The position numbers and the translations under genes were made by a program. 64,000 bases of DNA from Candidatus Aenigmatarchaeota archaeon (GTDB lineage Archaea; Aenigmatarchaeota; Aenigmatarchaeia; GW2011-AR5). The notes below the pieces were generated by a model. That model did not search any database and was not told the origin of the DNA. It saw only the letters and a list, made by a program, of their open reading frames with translations. This document shows positions 285 through 56,851 of this stretch, piece after piece (position 1 is the first letter of the stretch; each line of letters begins with the position of its first letter). The stretch spans positions 263,303-327,302 of the forward strand of contig JACPRW010000003.1 of assembly GCA_016193585.1 (NCBI GenBank), given 5' to 3'.

Positions 285-494
285 TGCGAGGGGTCGGATT
301 CGAACCGACGAACCCACTAAGGGACGAGATAGCACAAAAGCCTTGTTGCCCTTAAAGCCCTTGGCTCTTTCTTGAGTGTCGCTGTCATCGGAATTGTTCC
401 TGCAAACTCACGGATGGCTCGCGCCTTTTTCTGTCGTCCCTTGAGACCATGCAAGCAGCCTTCATTCGAACGGCTGTGACTTGGCTACCCTCGC
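285..494 (-). tRNA. tRNA-Leu(CAA) with four predicted introns (plus coordinates 450-477, 429-444, 378-417, 331-370); mature length 86 nt
   Basis: Acceptor GCGAGGG/CCCTCGC, T-arm GTCGG-TTCGAAT-CCGAC, Leu variable arm; anticodon arm CGAGA-CTCAAGA-TCTCG reconstitutes only after removing the inserts; intron 1 has a BHB with perfect central and upper helices. Confidence 0.85.
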
Positions 495-539: not shown

Positions 540-587
540 TATAGGTGAAACAAGTTTTTATACAGGTGCCAGTACTGTTTCGCCATA
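540..587. repeat. Single-hairpin TA-flanked module (variant M)
   Basis: TATAGGTGAAACA...TGTTTCGCCATA; same termini and size as the module at 2458-2508. Confidence 0.6.
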
Positions 588-609: not shown

Positions 610-1047
610 TCAGTGCAATTCCTGCAACTCTTTTCTGAGCGCCGCAAGCTGGTGCTGGAGGTCGGAGAGCGAGCCCTCGATATGACGTATCTCTATCTCG
701 CCCGGCGTTTCGATCTCGAACCCCTTCGGCCTGAGCAGTTCCGAGTCCACTTCAGTAACGGTCTTCTCGAGGCGCTGGACCGTCGCGCGGAGCATCTTGA
801 TCGCGTCAGCGCGCACCGCCTCGACGTCGTTGACGACGCCGAGCAGCTGCTTGACGCCCTCGATGAAGACTTTCATCTCCTGGACGTCGGAAAGGATTTC
901 CCGGTATTTTTCAACCTTGACAAACAGCGGCGCCGACATCGGCGCAGCAGGCTCCTGGACTATTTCCTGCTGCTGTGGCGCGGGATACGGTTCTTCTATG
1001 GCCTGCTTTATCTCCTTGGTCTCCTGCTTTTTTGCATGGAAGAACAT
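610..1047 (-). CDS. Conserved-looking hypothetical coiled-coil protein
   Basis: 145-aa ORF with host-like codon usage, PLFVKVEKY motif. Confidence 0.7.
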   Translation of the reverse strand: MFFHAKKQETKEIKQAIEEPYPAPQQQEIVQEPAAPMSAPLFVKVEKYREILSDVQEMKVFIEGVKQLLGVVNDVEAVRADAIKMLRATVQRLEKTVTEVDSELLRPKGFEIETPGEIEIRHIEGSLSDLQHQLAALRKELQELH

Positions 1048-1199
1048 ACTATGCTATCCTTTTCCGGCATACCTTAAATATCTATGTGCAGAATCCAGTT
1101 AGAATAAGATGGCTGCAAGGAAGTAGAGCTTCTTTGAGCTTTGCTTATCTGAGCATGCCAAAGAACCGTCCAATAAGCCACCTCTGGTGGCTTCTGACG

Positions 1200-1313
1200 T
1201 TGGTTCACTTACACCCAAAAAGCAAAGCTTTTTGGTGCACCGGAAAACTTTGTTTTCCGCGTGTAGCGGACAACAAAAGTAATATGTCGGTATTCTTTTG
1301 TTGGTCCACTATA
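1200..1313. repeat. Composite palindromic repeat: end of module A + double hairpin X1 (1212-1263) + module D (1264-1313)
   Basis: Near-identical to 10510-10623; D also at 21185-21236 in the opposite orientation. Confidence 0.9.
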
Positions 1314-21281: not shown

Positions 21282-21299
21282 AGCCGTAATGTAGTAAAG

Positions 21300-21418
21300 C
21301 GCCCCCGGCGCGATTCGAACGCGCGACCCCCTGCTCTCAACAGGAATCTTCATCCGGGCAGAGCCCGTCAGTTCACCTCTAGGAGGCAGGTGCTCTATCC
21401 AAACTGAGCTACAAGGGC
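21300..21418 (-). tRNA. tRNA-Arg(CCU), intron at about 37/38 (21336-21379)
   Basis: Cloverleaf with CCTGC/GCAGG anticodon stem; BHB central helix is poor. Confidence 0.85.
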
Positions 21419-21469
21419 ATGCATAGTGTTATTGGCTATAAAAAAGCTTTAATAAAAGCCGCGGCAGGA

Positions 21470-23385: not shown

Positions 23386-24660
23386 TTATTGCTGCGTGAG
23401 CGCCTGCAGTTCCTCGAGGTTGATGCGTATCTCCCGCTCGCTGCCCGATGCCATGTCCTTGAGCTTCAGTTTGCCCTGCTCCAGTTCCTTTTTGCCGACG
23501 ATGATGACATTCCGGACGTTGAGCTTGTTTGCGTACTCCATCTGCTTCCTGAGGTCGCGCCTGCTGAGGTCCATGATTGCGGGCAGGCATCTCTTCCTGA
23601 GCGCCTGCACGACATTTACGGCGTCGGCAAACATGTCGCCGGTGGCATAGGCGACAAAGTACTGGTCGGCGGCGATGGTCGCAGGCAATAGTTTCTTGGC
23701 TTCCAGTGTGATGAGGAGGCGCTCGATGCCGCCGGCAACGCCAGTTGCGGGCATCGGCTTGCCATAGATGCTGAGCAGGTCATCGTAGCGCCCGCCGCCG
23801 GCGACAGCACCTGTCTTCCCGTCGACCCATGCCTCGTAGACGGTGCCGGTGTAATAGTCGATGCCGCGTACGATGCTCAAATCAAGTGTACATCTATCCG
23901 CAATCTTGTACGTCCCGAGGAGCGCGAAGAGCTGCTCCAGCTCCTTGTAACCTTCCTGCGCCAGCTCGTTCTTCGGCATCGTCGCTTTCACGGATTCGAG
24001 CGTGGCGCCGCCTTTGCACAGCGTGAGAATTGCATCCGCCTGTTTCTTGCCAACATCACATTTCGCGAATTCCTTGATGAGCTGCTGCTTGCTCAGTTTC
24101 GCCGTCTTGTCGATGACGCGGAGGACGGCCGCGAGCCTCTTCTTGTCGATGCCAATGCCGAGCACGAAGCCCTCGATGAGCTTGCGGTTGTTGATGCGTA
24201 TCTGGGCATCAAGGCCAAGCCCTTTGAACGCCTCTATCATGAGCGCGATGATTTCCGCGTCAGCTTCCGCGCCCGCGCAGCCATATACCTCGGCGTCCCA
24301 CTGCCAGAACGAGCGGTAGCGGGCGTACTGCGGGTTGTCGTAGCGCCACATGTTCGAGATGCACGCAAGGCGCAGCGGCTTCGGCGCGTCCGTCGAAGCA
24401 ACGTAGCGTGCCATGCCGACAGTGAGGTCGAAACGCAAACCTATTTTGCGTTTCGCTTTATCCTCGAACGCGTATATCTCCTTTTCGAGGTCAGGCCCGC
24501 TCTTCGCCGTGAGCGTTTCCAGGTTCTCCAGCGCCGACGGCTCGACGAGCTGGAAGCCGAAGCGGCGCAGCGCGTCCTTCAGCCTGGCGACGACGTATTC
24601 CCGCTTCGCCATCTCGTCAGGCGCAATGTCCTTCATGCCTTTGGGCAGGGTGAATTTCAT
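23386..24660 (-). CDS. hisS: Histidyl-tRNA synthetase
   Basis: LRFDLT, RYRSFWQWDAE, RGIDYYTG, GGGRYDDL, GIERL, anticodon-binding domain. Confidence 0.95.
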   Translation of the reverse strand: MKFTLPKGMKDIAPDEMAKREYVVARLKDALRRFGFQLVEPSALENLETLTAKSGPDLEKEIYAFEDKAKRKIGLRFDLTVGMARYVASTDAPKPLRLACISNMWRYDNPQYARYRSFWQWDAEVYGCAGAEADAEIIALMIEAFKGLGLDAQIRINNRKLIEGFVLGIGIDKKRLAAVLRVIDKTAKLSKQQLIKEFAKCDVGKKQADAILTLCKGGATLESVKATMPKNELAQEGYKELEQLFALLGTYKIADRCTLDLSIVRGIDYYTGTVYEAWVDGKTGAVAGGGRYDDLLSIYGKPMPATGVAGGIERLLITLEAKKLLPATIAADQYFVAYATGDMFADAVNVVQALRKRCLPAIMDLSRRDLRKQMEYANKLNVRNVIIVGKKELEQGKLKLKDMASGSEREIRINLEELQALTQQ

Positions 24661-28977: not shown

Positions 28978-30665
28978 TTCAGCACCTCGCTCAACCTGGC
29001 CACGTCATCCAGAACGTCTTTTGCGCCCTCTCTGAGAAGCAGCGTTTTCGTGATACTGTCCGAAGTCACGCCTATTGATTCGATGCCGGCATTTTTGGCA
29101 GCGATGATATCCTCCACGGAATCGCCTATGTAAACTGCAGAGGCGACGCCGATGCTGGTCACCGCAAGCTGTATGCCGTACGGGTCGGGTTTCAGCCTGT
29201 CGCCGACATCATCCATCGCAATGAGCGTTTCGAAAAGTTCTTTGGTTCCTGCAGACTGCAGGGCGTACAGCGCCTCTTTTTTCGGCCTTCCGGTGACCAC
29301 GCCCAAGGCGTATCTCTTTTTCAGCGAAATGAGAAGGTTCCTGTCAACGAGCCATCGTTCATTTGTCTTGTAGCTTGAATAAAATTCCTGGAATTTCCCA
29401 ATAACAGTCTTTAGTTCAGGCGCACAGACTTTTCTTCTGATGAGCTCGAATGACAGTTTCCAGTCGTTGTTGTAGTTCCCCGTGTTTTTCAGCGATCGTA
29501 TCGCTTCGTCGGTCGGGTACGTGCCGGTGAAGAATTTGACCGTTTCTTGTATGGATTTTCGGTACGATCCGCCGACGTCAACGAGGATGCCATCCATGTC
29601 GAACAGGATCGCCCTGCTTCTGAGGACTTCTCTGAGCGTCTTCAGGAACCGGCTTGCCTGTTCTTTTGTCCCAACCCCGATCCTCAGGAACCCCTCAAGC
29701 ATGGGGTAGCCTGAAACGTTCCTGACAAGGATGCCCCTGCTTTTCAGGCCGCTGAAAACGTAGTCGCAGTTAATGCCGAAATCCGCAAGAAGAAAATTCG
29801 CGTCGGTCGGGAATGTTTTTATTCCGAGATTCCCCATTTCTTCGGACAAAAAATTCTTTGCATCGCTGACTTCTTTGACATAACGTTCTACAAATTCCAC
29901 ATCGTCAAGTGCAGCAGTCGCAAGCTTTGCTGCAACGCTGTTCACGCTGTACGGGGAGGCAGCCTTCCGCACGTAGGACATGTTCTTTCTGTTTGAAATA
30001 ATGTAGCCGATGCGCAGCCCGGCAAGACCGAAGGCCTTCGAGAACGTCTGAATGATAATCAGATTCTCAAATTCATTTATTTTTCCCTTGAAACTGTTCC
30101 CTGCATATTGATAATACGCTTCGTCGAGAAGGACAATGGCATTTTTTGCCTTCTTGATAATTGCTGTAATGACAGCATCGTCAACCGACGTCCCTGTGGG
30201 GTTGTTAGGATTGACGAGAATCACCATTCTTGTTTTGCCGGTTATGGAATCAAGGAATTTTTCTCCGGGGAATGAAAGGTCTTTCTGGTAGGGAATTTCT
30301 CTTATTCGTGCCCCTGCGATGCGTGCGTAGAACCCGAACATGGCAAAGGTTGGCACTGCGAGAACCACCTCGTCCCCCTTTTCAAGGTAGACGTCCATGA
30401 CGAGTTTTATCGCCTCGTCGCTGCCGTTTGTCGGAATTAGTTCTTCTTCGCTGAGCGACAGGTAATTTGCCAGTTTTCTAGTGAGCGCGCTGTATTCCGG
30501 ATACGCCGAAAGCTCTTCGGAGGTTATTTTACGCAGCGCTTCCATGGCCTTTGGCGAACAACCTGCAGTATTCTCGTTGAAGTCAAGCCGCAACGCTCCC
30601 AATCTCCCGGTATTCGGAGGCTTGTAGGGCTCCATCTTTATTATGCACTTCTTAGGCTGAACCAT
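28974..30665 (-). CDS. hisC: Histidinol-phosphate aminotransferase fused to a HAD-family phosphatase
   Basis: LDFNEN, NPNNPTG, DEAY, TFSKAFGLAGLRIGY followed by FDMDGILVD..TGRP..KP.P..YIGDSVED. Confidence 0.92.
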   Translation of the reverse strand: MVQPKKCIIKMEPYKPPNTGRLGALRLDFNENTAGCSPKAMEALRKITSEELSAYPEYSALTRKLANYLSLSEEELIPTNGSDEAIKLVMDVYLEKGDEVVLAVPTFAMFGFYARIAGARIREIPYQKDLSFPGEKFLDSITGKTRMVILVNPNNPTGTSVDDAVITAIIKKAKNAIVLLDEAYYQYAGNSFKGKINEFENLIIIQTFSKAFGLAGLRIGYIISNRKNMSYVRKAASPYSVNSVAAKLATAALDDVEFVERYVKEVSDAKNFLSEEMGNLGIKTFPTDANFLLADFGINCDYVFSGLKSRGILVRNVSGYPMLEGFLRIGVGTKEQASRFLKTLREVLRSRAILFDMDGILVDVGGSYRKSIQETVKFFTGTYPTDEAIRSLKNTGNYNNDWKLSFELIRRKVCAPELKTVIGKFQEFYSSYKTNERWLVDRNLLISLKKRYALGVVTGRPKKEALYALQSAGTKELFETLIAMDDVGDRLKPDPYGIQLAVTSIGVASAVYIGDSVEDIIAAKNAGIESIGVTSDSITKTLLLREGAKDVLDDVARLSEVLK

Positions 30666-31236
30666 TGGCACCACCGATGACAAGAAAGTCGCTCCCGAAA
30701 ATCTTCTGGTAAACCTGCAGCTTGTTGTCCCTCATCGAATCGCCTGTATACACTATGTCGATAACGAGGTCGGAAATCCCTTCCGCGCATGCCATTTCCA
30801 CGCAGCCATTGAGGTACGTTTTCCTGAACGTGTAGCCCTGACGCTCAAGGGCATTGAGAAATCTCCTCGACATATTTTTGTATTTCGCGTTTATGCAAAC
30901 CGTAGGAATCGGAGGCACGTCGTCAAGGCCCTTGCCTTCCGGTCCGAGCAGACAGAGCGTTGGCTTCCCGAACATGGCGCTTGGGTCATTCCAGACAATT
31001 CGTTGTACGACAGAGAGCCCGCCTCTCCTGTTTCCCAGGCACCATTCCCTGTACAAGTCCTCTCCAGTGAGTCCCAATGTTTGCTTTCCCAGACTCGAAA
31101 ACTCGTATACCAATGACGGGACGTCCTCTCCCCTCGCCTCTATTATCTTGCTTCCGTTGATGTCCATGGAAGAGAGGGCTATTTGCCGGTATGCTCTGAG
31201 GCCGCTGTTTTTCGGGACGACTATTATGGAGTTCAT
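30652..31236 (-). CDS. hisG: ATP phosphoribosyltransferase, short form (divergent)
   Basis: RGEDVP, GLTGEDL, KY, GCVE, IDIVYTG; first gene of the operon. Confidence 0.85.
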   Translation of the reverse strand: MNSIIVVPKNSGLRAYRQIALSSMDINGSKIIEARGEDVPSLVYEFSSLGKQTLGLTGEDLYREWCLGNRRGGLSVVQRIVWNDPSAMFGKPTLCLLGPEGKGLDDVPPIPTVCINAKYKNMSRRFLNALERQGYTFRKTYLNGCVEMACAEGISDLVIDIVYTGDSMRDNKLQVYQKIFGSDFLVIGGANGSA

Positions 31237-31242
31237 GAAACA

Positions 31243-31464
31243 TCACGTTTTCAGGGACGCAGCCGGGAATTGAACCCGGGATAAAGGATTCACAGCCCTT
31301 TGTGTTTTCACTACACCACCGCAGCCATTGGCAACAGTAAAAGAGACGTAATCTCCAGAAGCAAGCCCCAGGGACCTTCGTATGTCTGCCGGGACGAATA
31401 CCCTGCCCTTCGCGTCGAGGCAGTATCGTCCGTTGCCGGAGATGACTACCCTGCGATTGGGCAA
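31243..31464 (-). CDS. AbrB/MazE/SpoVT-like DNA-binding protein whose 3' end reads through a tRNA-His-like sequence
   Basis: LDAKGRVFVPADIRRSLGL..GDYV motif; TTG start. Confidence 0.6.
   Translation of the reverse strand: MPNRRVVISGNGRYCLDAKGRVFVPADIRRSLGLASGDYVSFTVANGCGGVVKTQRAVNPLSRVQFPAASLKT
31255..31326 (-). tRNA. Second, intronless and atypical tRNA-His(GUG)
   Basis: G-1:C73, AAGGG-CTGTGAA-TCCTT anticodon arm, CCGGG-TTCAATT-CCCGG T-arm; C2.U71 mismatch and D-loop lacking GG. Confidence 0.75.
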
Positions 31465-34931: not shown

Positions 34932-35029
34932 GGCCGCTGCCGAGATTTGAACTCGGTCCGAAGGCTCACCGCAGCACGTTCGCCAAGTGCATCCACAGGC
35001 CTGCATGCTGCCGTTACACCACAGCGGCC
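34932..35029 (-). tRNA. tRNA-His(GUG), canonical intron (34967-34992), encoded G-1
   Basis: Acceptor GCCGCTG/CAGCGGC, loop CTGTGG|A, BHB CTGT/GCGG. Confidence 0.9.
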
Positions 35030-40604: not shown

Positions 40605-41267
40605 CTATTTTATGGCGGCGATGAGCGCATGCTTCTGCTCGTACGGCTCGAGGTTGACGAGCTGGAGAACGCTGAAGCCGGCCTTCCGCAGTTTTTCAGC
40701 CTCCTCCTTGTAGACTTTGCTCGGGTCCTTGGTGACGTCGATGCTCTGCGATTTTACCGCGATGAGCACAAAGCCGCCCTTATTGAGGAACATATGCGCA
40801 TTCCGGATGGCAATCTCCGTCTCGTCCGGCTGTGCCACGTCAGTGACGAGCGTGTCGCATGCTTCAATCCAGTTGTAGAGTTCAGGCTTGCGCGCATCGG
40901 CAAGGATGGGTGCTATGTTGCCCCGTGCTGCTGCAAGGTCCGCGATATTCCTGAAGCTTCGCTCGGAGAATTCGATTGCGTACACGATGCCTTCCCTTCC
41001 TGCAATATCAGAAACGTGCGACACTGTTGTCCCGGTTGCCGCGCCGAGATAGAGGACCTTCGAGCAGCTTCTGACTGGAAACTGCTTGATGCCGTTCATG
41101 AGCGCTGCGGCGAGCTTGCTTCGCTCAGGAACCCATTCCCGCAATTCGCTGCCGCCCTGCCTGACAAGGCGCTCGCCGTACACCTTCTTTCCCGGCAACA
41201 GGTTTACGGTGTAGAGGCTTTTGCCTCCCCTGAAAATTCCTGGAAACAATTCCTGCATGCTGTTCAC
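40605..41267 (-). CDS. flpA: Fibrillarin
   Basis: VYGE, RSKLAA, LYLGAATGTTVSH, DVAQPD. Confidence 0.96.
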   Translation of the reverse strand: MNSMQELFPGIFRGGKSLYTVNLLPGKKVYGERLVRQGGSELREWVPERSKLAAALMNGIKQFPVRSCSKVLYLGAATGTTVSHVSDIAGREGIVYAIEFSERSFRNIADLAAARGNIAPILADARKPELYNWIEACDTLVTDVAQPDETEIAIRNAHMFLNKGGFVLIAVKSQSIDVTKDPSKVYKEEAEKLRKAGFSVLQLVNLEPYEQKHALIAAIK

Positions 41268-41270
41268 AAC

Positions 41271-42188
41271 CTACTTTATGGAATCGATTTCCTCGTCCAT
41301 TTCTTTCCTGAGTTTCTCCTCGAGCCTGCCCGAATAGTAGTCTATGCGCGCCGCAACCATGAGCTTGGAGGCGATGATGCGCGCGACCTTCCCGCGGTTC
41401 TCGGCGCGCGCGTTCTGTATGCGGTTGTCGAGGAACAGAATCCCGTATTTCGGTGATTTTCCCTGTTTCTTGAGATGCCTGAACAATGCCTTTTCCGCCC
41501 CGAGCAGTTGGATTGCCGAGGCAGGAAGCCGCGCGAGCTTTTGCAGCGACCCCGCGCCCGCAAGCATCTTCGCTGCCAGGAGCGGATCGACGAGCGAGCA
41601 GGTCGTCGGCGCAATCTCTGTCATGACGCGGCGCACGTAGTGCTCGAGCATTCTTCGCTCTTCGTTGACGGACGCGATCATGCGCGCATACGCGAACAGG
41701 GCTTCCTTGTCGCTGTCGGTCAGCTCTGCGCCGGCGCTCCCGGCGAAATCAGGGAATTGCTCCCGCGTCCCGTATGCAAGCGTTTTGGCAAGCAGCTCTC
41801 TCCCCGCTATGCGAAGCTCGGGATAGTGGAGCGTGTACCATTCGGTCAGGCGCTCGAGGAATACGGAGAGGACCTTGTCGAGGCTTTCGAGGGCGTTGTT
41901 TGCATGGACTGCGAGTTTGTCCCTGCCGATGATGCCCTTGAGTCCTTTGCGCGAGAGTGCGAGCGCAAACTGTGACATGAACCTAACCCATGCACTATCG
42001 TCGGCGACAAAGCCGAGGGAAATCGCGTGCGGGCGCAGGCTGGCGCCGATATACGCTGTCTGCTCTGGCGCCGCCAGGAATTCATCGACGGCCTTCTCCG
42101 GGTCGGTGACGAAGAGCGCATGCTTGGCAAGCCTGCCGTCGTCTGAGAACGTCAGTATGCCGATGGGCGTTTTAATCGGTGATGCCAT
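41271..42188 (-). CDS. nop5: Nop5 (Nop56/58) C/D snoRNP protein
   Basis: EWYTLHYPEL, PASAIQLLGAEKALF, SPKYG. Confidence 0.94.
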   Translation of the reverse strand: MASPIKTPIGILTFSDDGRLAKHALFVTDPEKAVDEFLAAPEQTAYIGASLRPHAISLGFVADDSAWVRFMSQFALALSRKGLKGIIGRDKLAVHANNALESLDKVLSVFLERLTEWYTLHYPELRIAGRELLAKTLAYGTREQFPDFAGSAGAELTDSDKEALFAYARMIASVNEERRMLEHYVRRVMTEIAPTTCSLVDPLLAAKMLAGAGSLQKLARLPASAIQLLGAEKALFRHLKKQGKSPKYGILFLDNRIQNARAENRGKVARIIASKLMVAARIDYYSGRLEEKLRKEMDEEIDSIK

Positions 42189-55514: not shown

Positions 55515-55631
55515 AGTCGAATCACTCAAGTAACGTGCGTTTATTCGGCTGTAATCTTTTTAAATGTATAATCGCACACCTGTGTAGACGGGCTCCTGTG
55601 GCCTCATGAACAGGAAGAGTGGTTGACGAAA

Positions 55632-55756
55632 GCCCTTGTAGTCTAGCTTGGATATCTGAGGAAAGCAGAGCTTTCCAAGATCTCGAAAAACAGGTTTTTC
55701 GAAGAGGACACGAGGTTGCGGACCTCGGAACCCGGGTTCAAATCCCGGCGGGGGCA
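55632..55756 (+). tRNA. tRNA-Arg(GCG) with a D-loop intron (about 55654-55704) made of a double hairpin
   Basis: CGAGG-TTGCGGA-CCTCG anticodon arm; D-stem GTCT/GGAC restored on removing 51 nt. Confidence 0.9.
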
Positions 55757-56851
55757 CTATTTCTTCGGGGTCTTATACCAGGAGATAGGGATTCCGAGCG
55801 CCATTTTCGCCAGCACGACGAGCACCACCCCGATAGAGAAAAGCGCGAGCAGGGAGGCGATGAATGGCGCGCCTATCGTTTCTGCTGCCGTCAGGTAGCG
55901 CGCAGCCTGATACATGGCAATGAGCATGGCAGCAGCCACGCCAGCCAGCGCAAGCGCATTGCCGGTGAAGAAGAAGAGCGCGGCGAGGAGCGGGATGAAG
56001 GCGTAAAAGTATACGACGGTCACGACAACGGGGAACATGAGGATGACCGACATGAGGTCGGTGCGGCCGGCTTTTCCGACCTCGCCTATGCAGCCGCGGA
56101 CCCAGCGCTCGTGCTGCCTGAACATATGGCCGAGTTCAGAAGGGACGAGCTCGCTTCCTCGAACGCCGGGATGGTAGAGGATTCTGCTCTTGCTGTGGAA
56201 CAGCCGGTGGTTGAGGTTGATGTCTTCGGTGAGCCCGTGGCGGAAGCCGCCGAGATGCATGAGCCTCTTCCGGTATATGGCAAAATTTCTGCCGCCGATG
56301 CCGGCAGTCATGAACACGCGGGAGAACAGGTAGTTTGCTACAGGCAGGAGGACAAGCTCGAGACGTGCGAGGAGCGGTGCCATGCCTCCTTTGTTGGTGC
56401 CTATTGTTATGCCCACGACAACCGGCGTTTCATCAGACAGCGATGACGCGATGGCCGCGAATGCGCCCCGTTCCGGCGTCGTGTCGGCATCGAGGAAATA
56501 CAGCACCTCATTTCCCGCTTTTCTGATGCCTATGTTGAGTGCGGCGCCCTTTCCCGAACAGCGCGTGTCCCTGCAAATCTTTGCGCGGTAGGTTCGTGCA
56601 GCCCGCGCGACGTCCTTCTCTCCGGTGCTGTCGATGACGATGATTTCTATCGACCGCTGCGGGTAATCAGCCGCCCTGATTGCGGCGAGTGTCTTCCTGA
56701 GAATCCGTCCCTTCTCGGCATTCGCAATGAGGACGGAAAACGTCGGCCGCCCTGCGCGCCGGCGCGGTTCGTAGGGAACCAGCATGCAGAGGAGCATTGC
56801 AGCATATACCGCCGTAAATCCTGCGCCAACAAGGGCGGCAATGTCTGCCAT
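55757..56851 (-). CDS. Membrane GT2 glycosyltransferase
   Basis: GKGAALN, FLDADT, TEDI, RQHERWVRG; start reassigned. Confidence 0.88.
   Translation of the reverse strand: MADIAALVGAGFTAVYAAMLLCMLVPYEPRRRAGRPTFSVLIANAEKGRILRKTLAAIRAADYPQRSIEIIVIDSTGEKDVARAARTYRAKICRDTRCSGKGAALNIGIRKAGNEVLYFLDADTTPERGAFAAIASSLSDETPVVVGITIGTNKGGMAPLLARLELVLLPVANYLFSRVFMTAGIGGRNFAIYRKRLMHLGGFRHGLTEDINLNHRLFHSKSRILYHPGVRGSELVPSELGHMFRQHERWVRGCIGEVGKAGRTDLMSVILMFPVVVTVVYFYAFIPLLAALFFFTGNALALAGVAAAMLIAMYQAARYLTAAETIGAPFIASLLALFSIGVVLVVLAKMALGIPISWYKTPKK

Follow-up and report, generated by a model that had tools for sequence, protein, structure and literature searches.

Micro-exons and probable stepwise splicing in a four-intron tRNA-Leu(CAA) gene of an Aenigmatarchaeota archaeon

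The window analyzed here, a contiguous stretch of 64,000 nucleotides (64 kb), carries a tRNA-Leu(CAA) gene of 210 nt on its minus strand (494 to 285), composed of five exons and four introns. Exon 1 (494-478, 17 nt) covers tRNA positions 1-17, i.e., the 5′ acceptor strand, the 5′ D-stem strand and the start of the D-loop, and has the same sequence as exon 1 of two related genes, L008 and L009, that are described below. It is followed by intron 1 (477-450, 28 nt), which interrupts the D-loop at 17/17a with a canonical bulge-helix-bulge (BHB) motif, and then by exon 2 (449-445), a micro-exon of only 5 nt, UGGUC (TGGTC in the DNA), that carries G18 and G19. Intron 2 (444-429, 16 nt) lies in the D-loop at 20a/20b and has a relaxed BHB whose formation depends on the junction of exons 1 and 2, while exon 3 (428-418, 11 nt) supplies the end of the D-loop, the 3′ D-stem strand, G26 and residues 27-30 of the anticodon stem. 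The second micro-exon, exon 4 (377-371, 7 nt), has the sequence ACUCAAG (DNA ACTCAAG), spans positions 31-37 including the anticodon CAA, and is flanked by two introns with relaxed BHBs, intron 3 (417-378, 40 nt) in the anticodon stem at 30/31 and intron 4 (370-331, 40 nt) at the canonical 37/38 site. Exon 5 (330-285, 46 nt) comprises position 38, the 3′ strand of the anticodon stem, the long variable arm, the T-arm, the 3′ acceptor strand and the discriminator A; CCA is not encoded at its 3′ end.

Removal of the 28, 16, 40, and 40 nt leaves a tRNA of 86 nt which ARAGORN identifies as tRNA-Leu(caa) and in which there is no stem mismatch. It forms a class II cloverleaf whose acceptor, D-, anticodon and T-stems measure 7, 3, 5 and 5 bp, respectively, and whose variable arm is long. 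In its unspliced form the gene was detected neither by ARAGORN nor by Rfam at the gathering threshold, and in E-value mode Rfam returned for the locus only a partial tRNA match of 13.7 bits to the 3′ part. When the mature sequence of L008 was aligned onto the 210 nt as a spliced product, all five exons were recovered exactly. A sequence-only reading of the window had proposed a tRNA-Leu(CAA) with four introns and micro-exons of 5 and 7 nt; its coordinates, lengths and exon sequences were all correct, the introns and micro-exons are upheld by the spliced alignment and the orthologs, and the identity it assigned is borne out by the ARAGORN call on the spliced 86-mer, by the orthologs and by covariation. 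We also considered a split or permuted tRNA gene and rejected it, as all five exons follow one another in order on a single strand, within 210 nt.

Directly upstream of the tRNA, on the minus strand, is an ORF of 145 aa (610..1047) to which no Pfam family could be assigned and which provided the synteny anchor for orthologs. In all of the loci fetched, a homolog of this ORF (47-70% identity) lies ahead of the orthologous tRNA, and tblastn on related contigs found the synteny of an MscS-like gene, the 145-aa ORF and the tRNA to be kept. All of its named homologs are labelled Candidatus Aenigmatarchaeota or Aenigmarchaeota, the named top matches to the isoleucyl-tRNA synthetase that the window encodes (57-63% identity) nearly all carry this label too (a few read only "archaeon" or Micrarchaeota), and genes for archaeal markers are present as well (fibrillarin, Nop5, ribosomal protein S17e, FEN1, and mevalonate-pathway enzymes). 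Judged by these sequences, the host is an Aenigmatarchaeota (DPANN) archaeon and not a member of the Thermoproteales. Neither EndA, the splicing endonuclease of archaea, nor the ligase RtcB was found among the 62 ORFs of the 64-kb window that were scanned against Pfam.

A putative archaeal TATA box, TATAAAAA (555..562, minus strand), was read from the sequence upstream of the gene, and TTTTAAAACTTG is present upstream of the tRNA gene of L017. It is possible that TATAAAAA at 562-555 is the TATA box of the promoter; it ends 61 nt upstream of the mature 5′ end, which is farther upstream than usual for archaeal tRNA genes and counts against our preferred explanation of the locus.

With the exact protein of the upstream ORF (610-1047) we located the locus on short contigs from several runs of one project; a neighboring run of the same series derives from groundwater at Modesto, California, and belongs to the data set of He et al. 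(2021). The 210-nt gene and ~1.1-1.2 kb of flank are 100% identical in five contigs, each assembled separately from a different sequencing run. All five of these short-read contigs stop within window positions 1185-1239, just short of a tRNA-Gly gene at 1322-1422, and there may be strain variation or a repeat at this point.

Related genes were first found by pattern scans of GTDB genomes and JGI metagenomes; a genome scan with the 3′ exon returned mostly unrelated haloarchaeal tRNAs, L008 alone being useful, and further loci were fetched by using homologs of the 145-aa ORF as anchors. This yielded nine positional orthologs on other Aenigmatarchaeota contigs, all nine of which ARAGORN identifies as tRNA-Leu(CAA) once their inserts are removed. 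Counting the window gene (n = 10), the orthologous gene has from one to four introns at seven insertion sites, and five of the ten have four: the window gene itself (D-loop 17/17a, D-loop 20a/20b, 30/31, and 37/38), its closest relative L017 (D-loop, 30/31, 37/38, and T-loop), L009 (D-loop, 30/31, variable arm, and T-loop), and both L022 and L026 (D-loop, 37/38, variable arm, and T-loop). Three introns are present in L008, which equals L011 (D-loop, 30/31, and a 10-nt intron at 37/38), and in L025 (two D-arm sites and 37/38), two in L021 (30/31 and variable arm) and L028 (30/31 and T-loop), and a single one in L020 (T-loop).

The orthologs place the boundaries of the introns in the window gene site by site. 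The intron 1 site is also occupied in L008, L009, and L017, where the inner-helix sequences are unrelated yet still pair. In the same three genes TGGTCAAAGGCG is uninterrupted, with UGGUC contiguous with AAAGGCG, and the boundaries of intron 2 are thereby fixed independently of any motif; none of the other nine orthologs has an intron at this site, the second D-arm intron of L025 being situated elsewhere. The intron 3 site (30/31) is common to L008, L009, L017, L021, and L028, with a central helix of 4/4 pairs in four. L008 and L017 likewise have an intron on either side of the 7-mer of exon 4, ACUCAAG, which in L009, L021, and L028 runs on uninterrupted into the 3′ half. Between genomes the introns have diverged beyond alignment, whereas the exons average 89% column identity. 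No paralogous copies of the four introns, which would be a sign of intron transposition, were found in the window or in any of the fetched loci.

To score the spliced product, eight spliced orthologs (the window gene included) were aligned and compared with the cloverleaf. Standard pairs occupy all 184 of the 184 pair cells (100%), and double compensatory changes have occurred in 11 of the 23 pairs. The observed covariation values were reached by none of 500 shuffles, and when the 3′ partner was slid out of place pairing fell to 29-50%. One of these changes is specific to the window gene, in which G28:C42 takes the place of the A:U found in all seven of the other aligned orthologs; G28 is in exon 3 and C42 in exon 5, with two introns and a micro-exon between them. 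The kept pairs, the compensatory changes and the exon-spanning G28:C42 pair are together hard to reconcile with a pseudogene. The codon UUG is in use in the window (36 occurrences in 14 genes, 7% of leucine codons).

The BHB motifs were read in a strict register on both strands: a 4-nt helix strand, two bulge bases, the cut, and the third bulge base. Intron 1 has the feature of two bulges and a 4-bp helix in textbook form, with a central helix CAAG/CUUG (4/4), 3-nt bulges (UCA and CAU, each cut after its second base) and a 5-bp inner helix CAGCC/GGCUG. In introns 2-4 this feature is relaxed, at most three of the four central pairs being formed. For intron 2 the unspliced RNA offers only AUGG/ACAG (2/4 pairs), and after removal of intron 1 this becomes CUGG/ACAG (3/4) with an additional outer U-A pair, giving a contiguous UCUG/CAGA. 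Intron 3 has the central helix CGCG/AGCG (3/4, with a G.A mismatch), an outer helix of 2 bp, and an inner helix CAUC/GAUG whose offset by 2 nt turns the 5′ bulge into an internal loop, and intron 4 has CUCA/UGUG (3/4, with a U.U mismatch), an inner helix of 3 bp and, once intron 3 has been removed, the anticodon stem as its outer helix. Read in this way, most introns of the orthologs also have four or three of the four central pairs. The sequence-only reading had described a clean motif at intron 1, which the register confirms in every element, and a central helix at intron 2 that depends on the exon 1-exon 2 junction, which agrees with the gain from 2/4 to 3/4 plus the outer pair; it had also singled out introns 2 and 4 as relaxed, and this is so for both (3/4 each, for intron 2 after removal of intron 1), but intron 3 is relaxed as well.

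A BHB motif alone is no evidence of an intron here, because in an open, strict-register scan of the region 572 candidates had all four central pairs, and a comparable flank score was attained in 96% of shuffles, which is the level of chance. The motifs carry weight because they fall at boundaries that the orthologs establish on independent grounds, and at the four preset site pairs the central scores of 4, 3, 3, and 3 have a chance of ~7e-5 by a rough calculation that assumes independence of the sites. When all 15 splicing intermediates were folded thermodynamically, the BHB helices had ensemble probabilities near zero, and even the perfect motif of intron 1 reached only ~1%, so that folding is uninformative on the order of splicing. 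That the ensembles favor none of the BHBs, and that introns 2-4 have only 3/4 central pairs, also counts against the explanation that we prefer.

Several other explanations of the 210 nt have to be weighed against four introns with the boundaries given above. Intron 2 could be cut one base further out on each side, which would make it 18 nt long and the D-loop two bases shorter (UCUGGU joined to AAGGC). Such a cut would employ UCUG/CAGA as central helix, which is the one 4-bp helix open to intron 2 with Watson-Crick pairs throughout, and either site would show the usual offset of two bases; D-loop length does vary among the orthologs. However, it is the 16-nt boundaries that reproduce GUCUGGUCAAAGGC of L008 and L009 exactly and that lie in the standard register, with a G.A mismatch placed in the helix just as it is in intron 3, and we regard the 18-nt form as unlikely. 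A fold with fewer introns, which the sequence-only reading had named among the findings that would overturn it, does arise: spliced alignment with a higher intron penalty, or with references from orthologs that have a different D-loop, yields three introns, one of which is a D-loop intron of 46-49 nt that takes in TGGTC. The mature tRNA would then lack the conserved G18G19, and the cut pair 17/66 has one of four central pairs by hand count, as against a perfect BHB that ends right before TGGTC, a segment that also matches the ortholog exon in both sequence and position. We therefore hold the three-intron parse to be very improbable, and the four introns stand.

It is similarly very improbable that the gene is a decaying pseudogene whose tRNA-Leu(CAA) is supplied by another gene. 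The failure of the standard detectors to score the gene and the imperfection of three of its four BHBs would fit with decay, but the cloverleaf is broken at no exon position, the lineage-specific G:C compensation spans two exons, the locus is a conserved positional ortholog in ten genomes, and introns that cannot be aligned adjoin exons with 89% average column identity; a second Leu(CAA) gene was not found within the 64-kb window. Since the source is a metagenome assembly, an artefact of assembly or binning could in principle have joined unrelated fragments. Against this, the gene and its flank are 100% identical in contigs from five sequencing runs, and identity across five independent assemblies means that the tRNA-Leu(CAA) locus is no assembly artefact; we give this explanation practically no credence. 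We thus return to four introns in the tRNA-Leu(CAA) gene of an uncultured archaeon from groundwater; the gene is real and almost certainly functional, and represents an extreme case of known archaeal interruption rather than a new mechanism.

The motifs that flank each micro-exon share nucleotides. A45 and U46 lie in the 3′ bulge of the intron 1 motif and at the same time in the central helix of the intron 2 motif, and C119 and U120 (C32 and U33 of the tRNA) likewise fall in both the intron 3 outer helix and the intron 4 central helix, such that the neighboring motifs cannot coexist and stepwise processing would be required. By sequence logic only, the intron 2 helix draws U16 and C17 from exon 1 and, once the two exons are joined, U-G from exon 2, and the order intron 1 before intron 2 is favored because only the exon 1-exon 2 junction completes this helix. 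Taken together, we consider it very likely that the locus is a functional tRNA-Leu(CAA) gene with four BHB-type introns, at 17/17a, 20a/20b, 30/31, and 37/38, that are spliced stepwise.

Expression of the gene would then proceed as follows. The gene probably has a promoter of its own from which the precursor is made, and EndA would cut this precursor and an RtcB-type ligase rejoin it in steps, the enzymes and the order of removal being predicted from sequence. Intron 1 would be a canonical substrate within the primary transcript, and the joining of exon 1 to the 5-nt exon 2 would create the UCUG/CAGA helix that presents intron 2. Introns 3 and 4, on either side of the 7-nt anticodon exon, would compete for C32 and U33 and so be removed one after the other. 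We infer that if both introns flanking a micro-exon were cut prior to ligation the free 5-mer or 7-mer would be lost; with stepwise removal each micro-exon would always keep a covalent bond to at least one neighbor, and this loss would be avoided.

Intron 3 of the window gene also contains a module that recurs in the orthologs. Its first element, (U)UGAG(U/C), is the complement of positions 31-36 (A31-A36) in the anticodon loop; one base further on, at fixed spacing, comes a 4-nt WUGA-like box, then a variable loop or hairpin, and lastly RAUGA, which is located a few bases before the 3′ helix strand. In the window gene (410-385, minus strand) these elements are UGAGU at 410-406, a small hairpin at 400-390 and GAUGA at 389-385. 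The module is present exactly once in nine of the ten orthologs (the window gene, L008, L009, L017, L021, L022, L025, L026, and L028), in the 30/31 intron in six genomes, including that of the window, and in the 37/38 intron in three. The 4-nt box ends in UGA in six of the nine module introns (AUGA or UUGA) and is a degenerate UGCA in the window gene; RAUGA occurs in 9/9 within intron sequence that has otherwise fully diverged.

If the 4-nt box is read as a D′ box, the base five upstream pairs with C34, the pairing being of 5-7 bp only. The minimum-energy structure from RNAfold pairs UGAGU with ACUCA, and the BHB of the 30/31 intron does not require the module segment; the UGAGU pairing crosses the central helix of that BHB, and the two would have to be alternative folds or form a pseudoknot. 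A terminal box C (RUGAUGA) and box D (CUGA) were absent from intron 3, its flanks and the ortholog introns when these were read by eye. Reading the module as a full box C/D RNA or as a canonical K-turn was rejected for this reason and because the bulge is on the wrong strand in several orthologs and the GAUGA of L028 is a strand of the 9-bp inner helix of its BHB.

It is conceivable, though rather improbable, that the module is a conserved helix between anticodon and intron with a function of its own, which would be either to guide modification of C34 or to control the order of splicing. In the first case C34 could undergo 2′-O-methylation by the fibrillarin/Nop5 of the window or, by analogy with eukaryotic tRNA-Leu(CAA), Trm4-like methylation. 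For Pyrococcus, box C/D targeting has been predicted at C34 of tRNA-Leu(CAA), and in eukaryotes the intron of tRNA-Leu(CAA) is required for C34 methylation by Trm4 (PMC4090602). As in the box C/D guide in the intron of pre-tRNA-Trp (Clouet d'Orval, 2001), an intron segment would pair with the anticodon loop of its own precursor; unlike that archaeal guide, the window module has no terminal boxes C and D, pairs over 5-7 bp and has the degenerate UGCA. In the second case the module could mask the 37/38 site until intron 3 is removed. The genes for fibrillarin and Nop5, core components of the box C/D 2′-O-methylation machinery, are adjacent in the window (40605-42188, minus strand), from which it follows that this DPANN genome keeps RNA-guided methylation; L7Ae was not found in the 64-kb window.

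Two further observations concern introns of the related genes. The T-loop introns of L009, L010, L017, L020, L022, L026, and L028 are long (49-82 nt where measured) and have perfect BHBs, and several of them have blocks in common, e.g., CCAATCCCTTCTTT...AAGAAGGTCTTGG...GATTGGTGAAAT. As L010 is a Leu(UAG) gene with a similar T-loop intron, this suggests an intron family that is spreading between tRNA genes. Secondly, the 37/38 inserts of L022, L025, and L026 (54-92 nt) look composite, with a part resembling intron 4 of L017 followed by the anticodon-complementary module. In the L026 insert UGAG pairs 4/4 with CUCA in the BHB register, and if it is read so, two introns may be present in tandem there, and the count for L022 and L026 would rise to five.

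Over the whole window ARAGORN detected one tRNA gene and Rfam at the gathering threshold four, none of them at 285-494, and three of the seven tRNA genes in the window, for Leu(CAA), Arg(GCG), and Arg(CCU), are missed by standard tools. The tRNA-Arg(GCG) gene (55631-55757, plus strand), missed by both ARAGORN and Rfam, extends from the acceptor strand GCCCTTG to CGGGGGCA and has an anticodon loop TTGCGGA and a D-loop insert of ~50 nt with two hairpins that may be two adjacent introns. The tRNA-Arg(CCU) gene (21297-21425, minus strand), likewise missed by both detectors, has an intron of ~43 nt near 37/38 with CTGA, a hairpin (CGGGCTCTGCCCG) and GATGA, which resembles a box D′/C′ pair. The window also has two tRNA-His loci. 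A normal tRNA-His that contains an intron and has G-1 and C73 is at 34932-35028, and a second tRNA-His(GUG)-like gene (31254-31325, minus strand), with a C2.U71 mismatch and a D-loop without GG, immediately precedes hisG (30652-31236) and heads a cluster for histidine biosynthesis whose last gene is that of histidyl-tRNA synthetase (23386-24660). This odd copy could be a tRNA-like leader or a regulatory element.

As the standard tRNA finders miss such genes, the tRNA complements of DPANN genomes are undercounted, and inferences on genome completeness and codon capacity are biased as a consequence. The gene described here extends the documented upper range of tRNA fragmentation (four introns and a 5-nt exon) to the Aenigmatarchaeota, for which we found no previous report: in the main-text literature we encountered no tRNA introns from this phylum, and no four-intron archaeal tRNAs other than those of an Asgard supplement discussed below. 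One orthologous gene with one to four introns at seven sites also constitutes a natural series for studying the gain and loss of BHB introns, and the same series is suited to the study of overlapping motifs that enforce stepwise splicing.

In relation to known systems, DPANN lineages have been reported to have more disrupted tRNA genes and incomplete tRNA sets, suggestive of hidden genes, which was linked to inserts in EndA (Kaneta et al., 2018, PMC5829648); the Aenigmatarchaeota were not among the lineages analyzed in that study, and no four-intron gene or micro-exons were reported in it. ARMAN has an epsilon2 EndA (PMC3239211). In the Thermoproteales (e.g., Pyrobaculum calidifontis; Sugahara et al., 2007/2008, summarized in PMC8450103), BHB or relaxed introns similarly occur at many positions with rapid gain and loss, and can be so close together that one must be removed before the motif of the next can form; these are Crenarchaeota with an (alpha-beta)2 EndA and a stated maximum of three introns per gene, whereas the host here is DPANN. 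The nuclear tRNA genes of a eukaryote, the red alga Cyanidioschyzon merolae (PMC3728597), are likewise disrupted, by up to three BHB introns whose order of removal was shown experimentally; their BHBs can each fold independently and the order follows motif stability, in contrast to the shared nucleotides of neighboring motifs in the window gene.

The sequence-only reading had placed four introns with dependent splicing at or beyond the known range; neither the number of introns nor the dependent splicing is in fact beyond it. The tRNAscan-SE 2.0 paper gives up to three introns for archaeal tRNA genes and already describes dependent splicing of closely spaced tRNA introns (PMC8450103). Four-intron tRNAs have been recorded for Asgard archaea, namely Arg-TCT, Ile2-CAT, and Leu-GAG of Freyarchaeia and Trp-CCA and Lys-TTT of Atabeyarchaeia (Valentin-Alvarado et al., 2024, Supplementary Data 4, PMC11291895), and with them stand the five of our ten orthologs that have four. 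Like the window gene, those of the Asgard archaea have short introns at mostly non-canonical positions, and some of these introns are missed by standard detectors (PMC11291895). That record consists of a supplementary table in which neither motifs nor the order of splicing are analyzed, its Leu(CAA) genes have two to three introns as against four in our DPANN, non-Asgard host, and the micro-exons that can be derived from its tabulated coordinates are of 7-9 nt, so that the 5-nt exon is shorter than any derivable from it (PMC11291895). The number of introns in the window gene is consequently at the documented maximum, and its 5-nt exon is probably below the documented minimum exon length.
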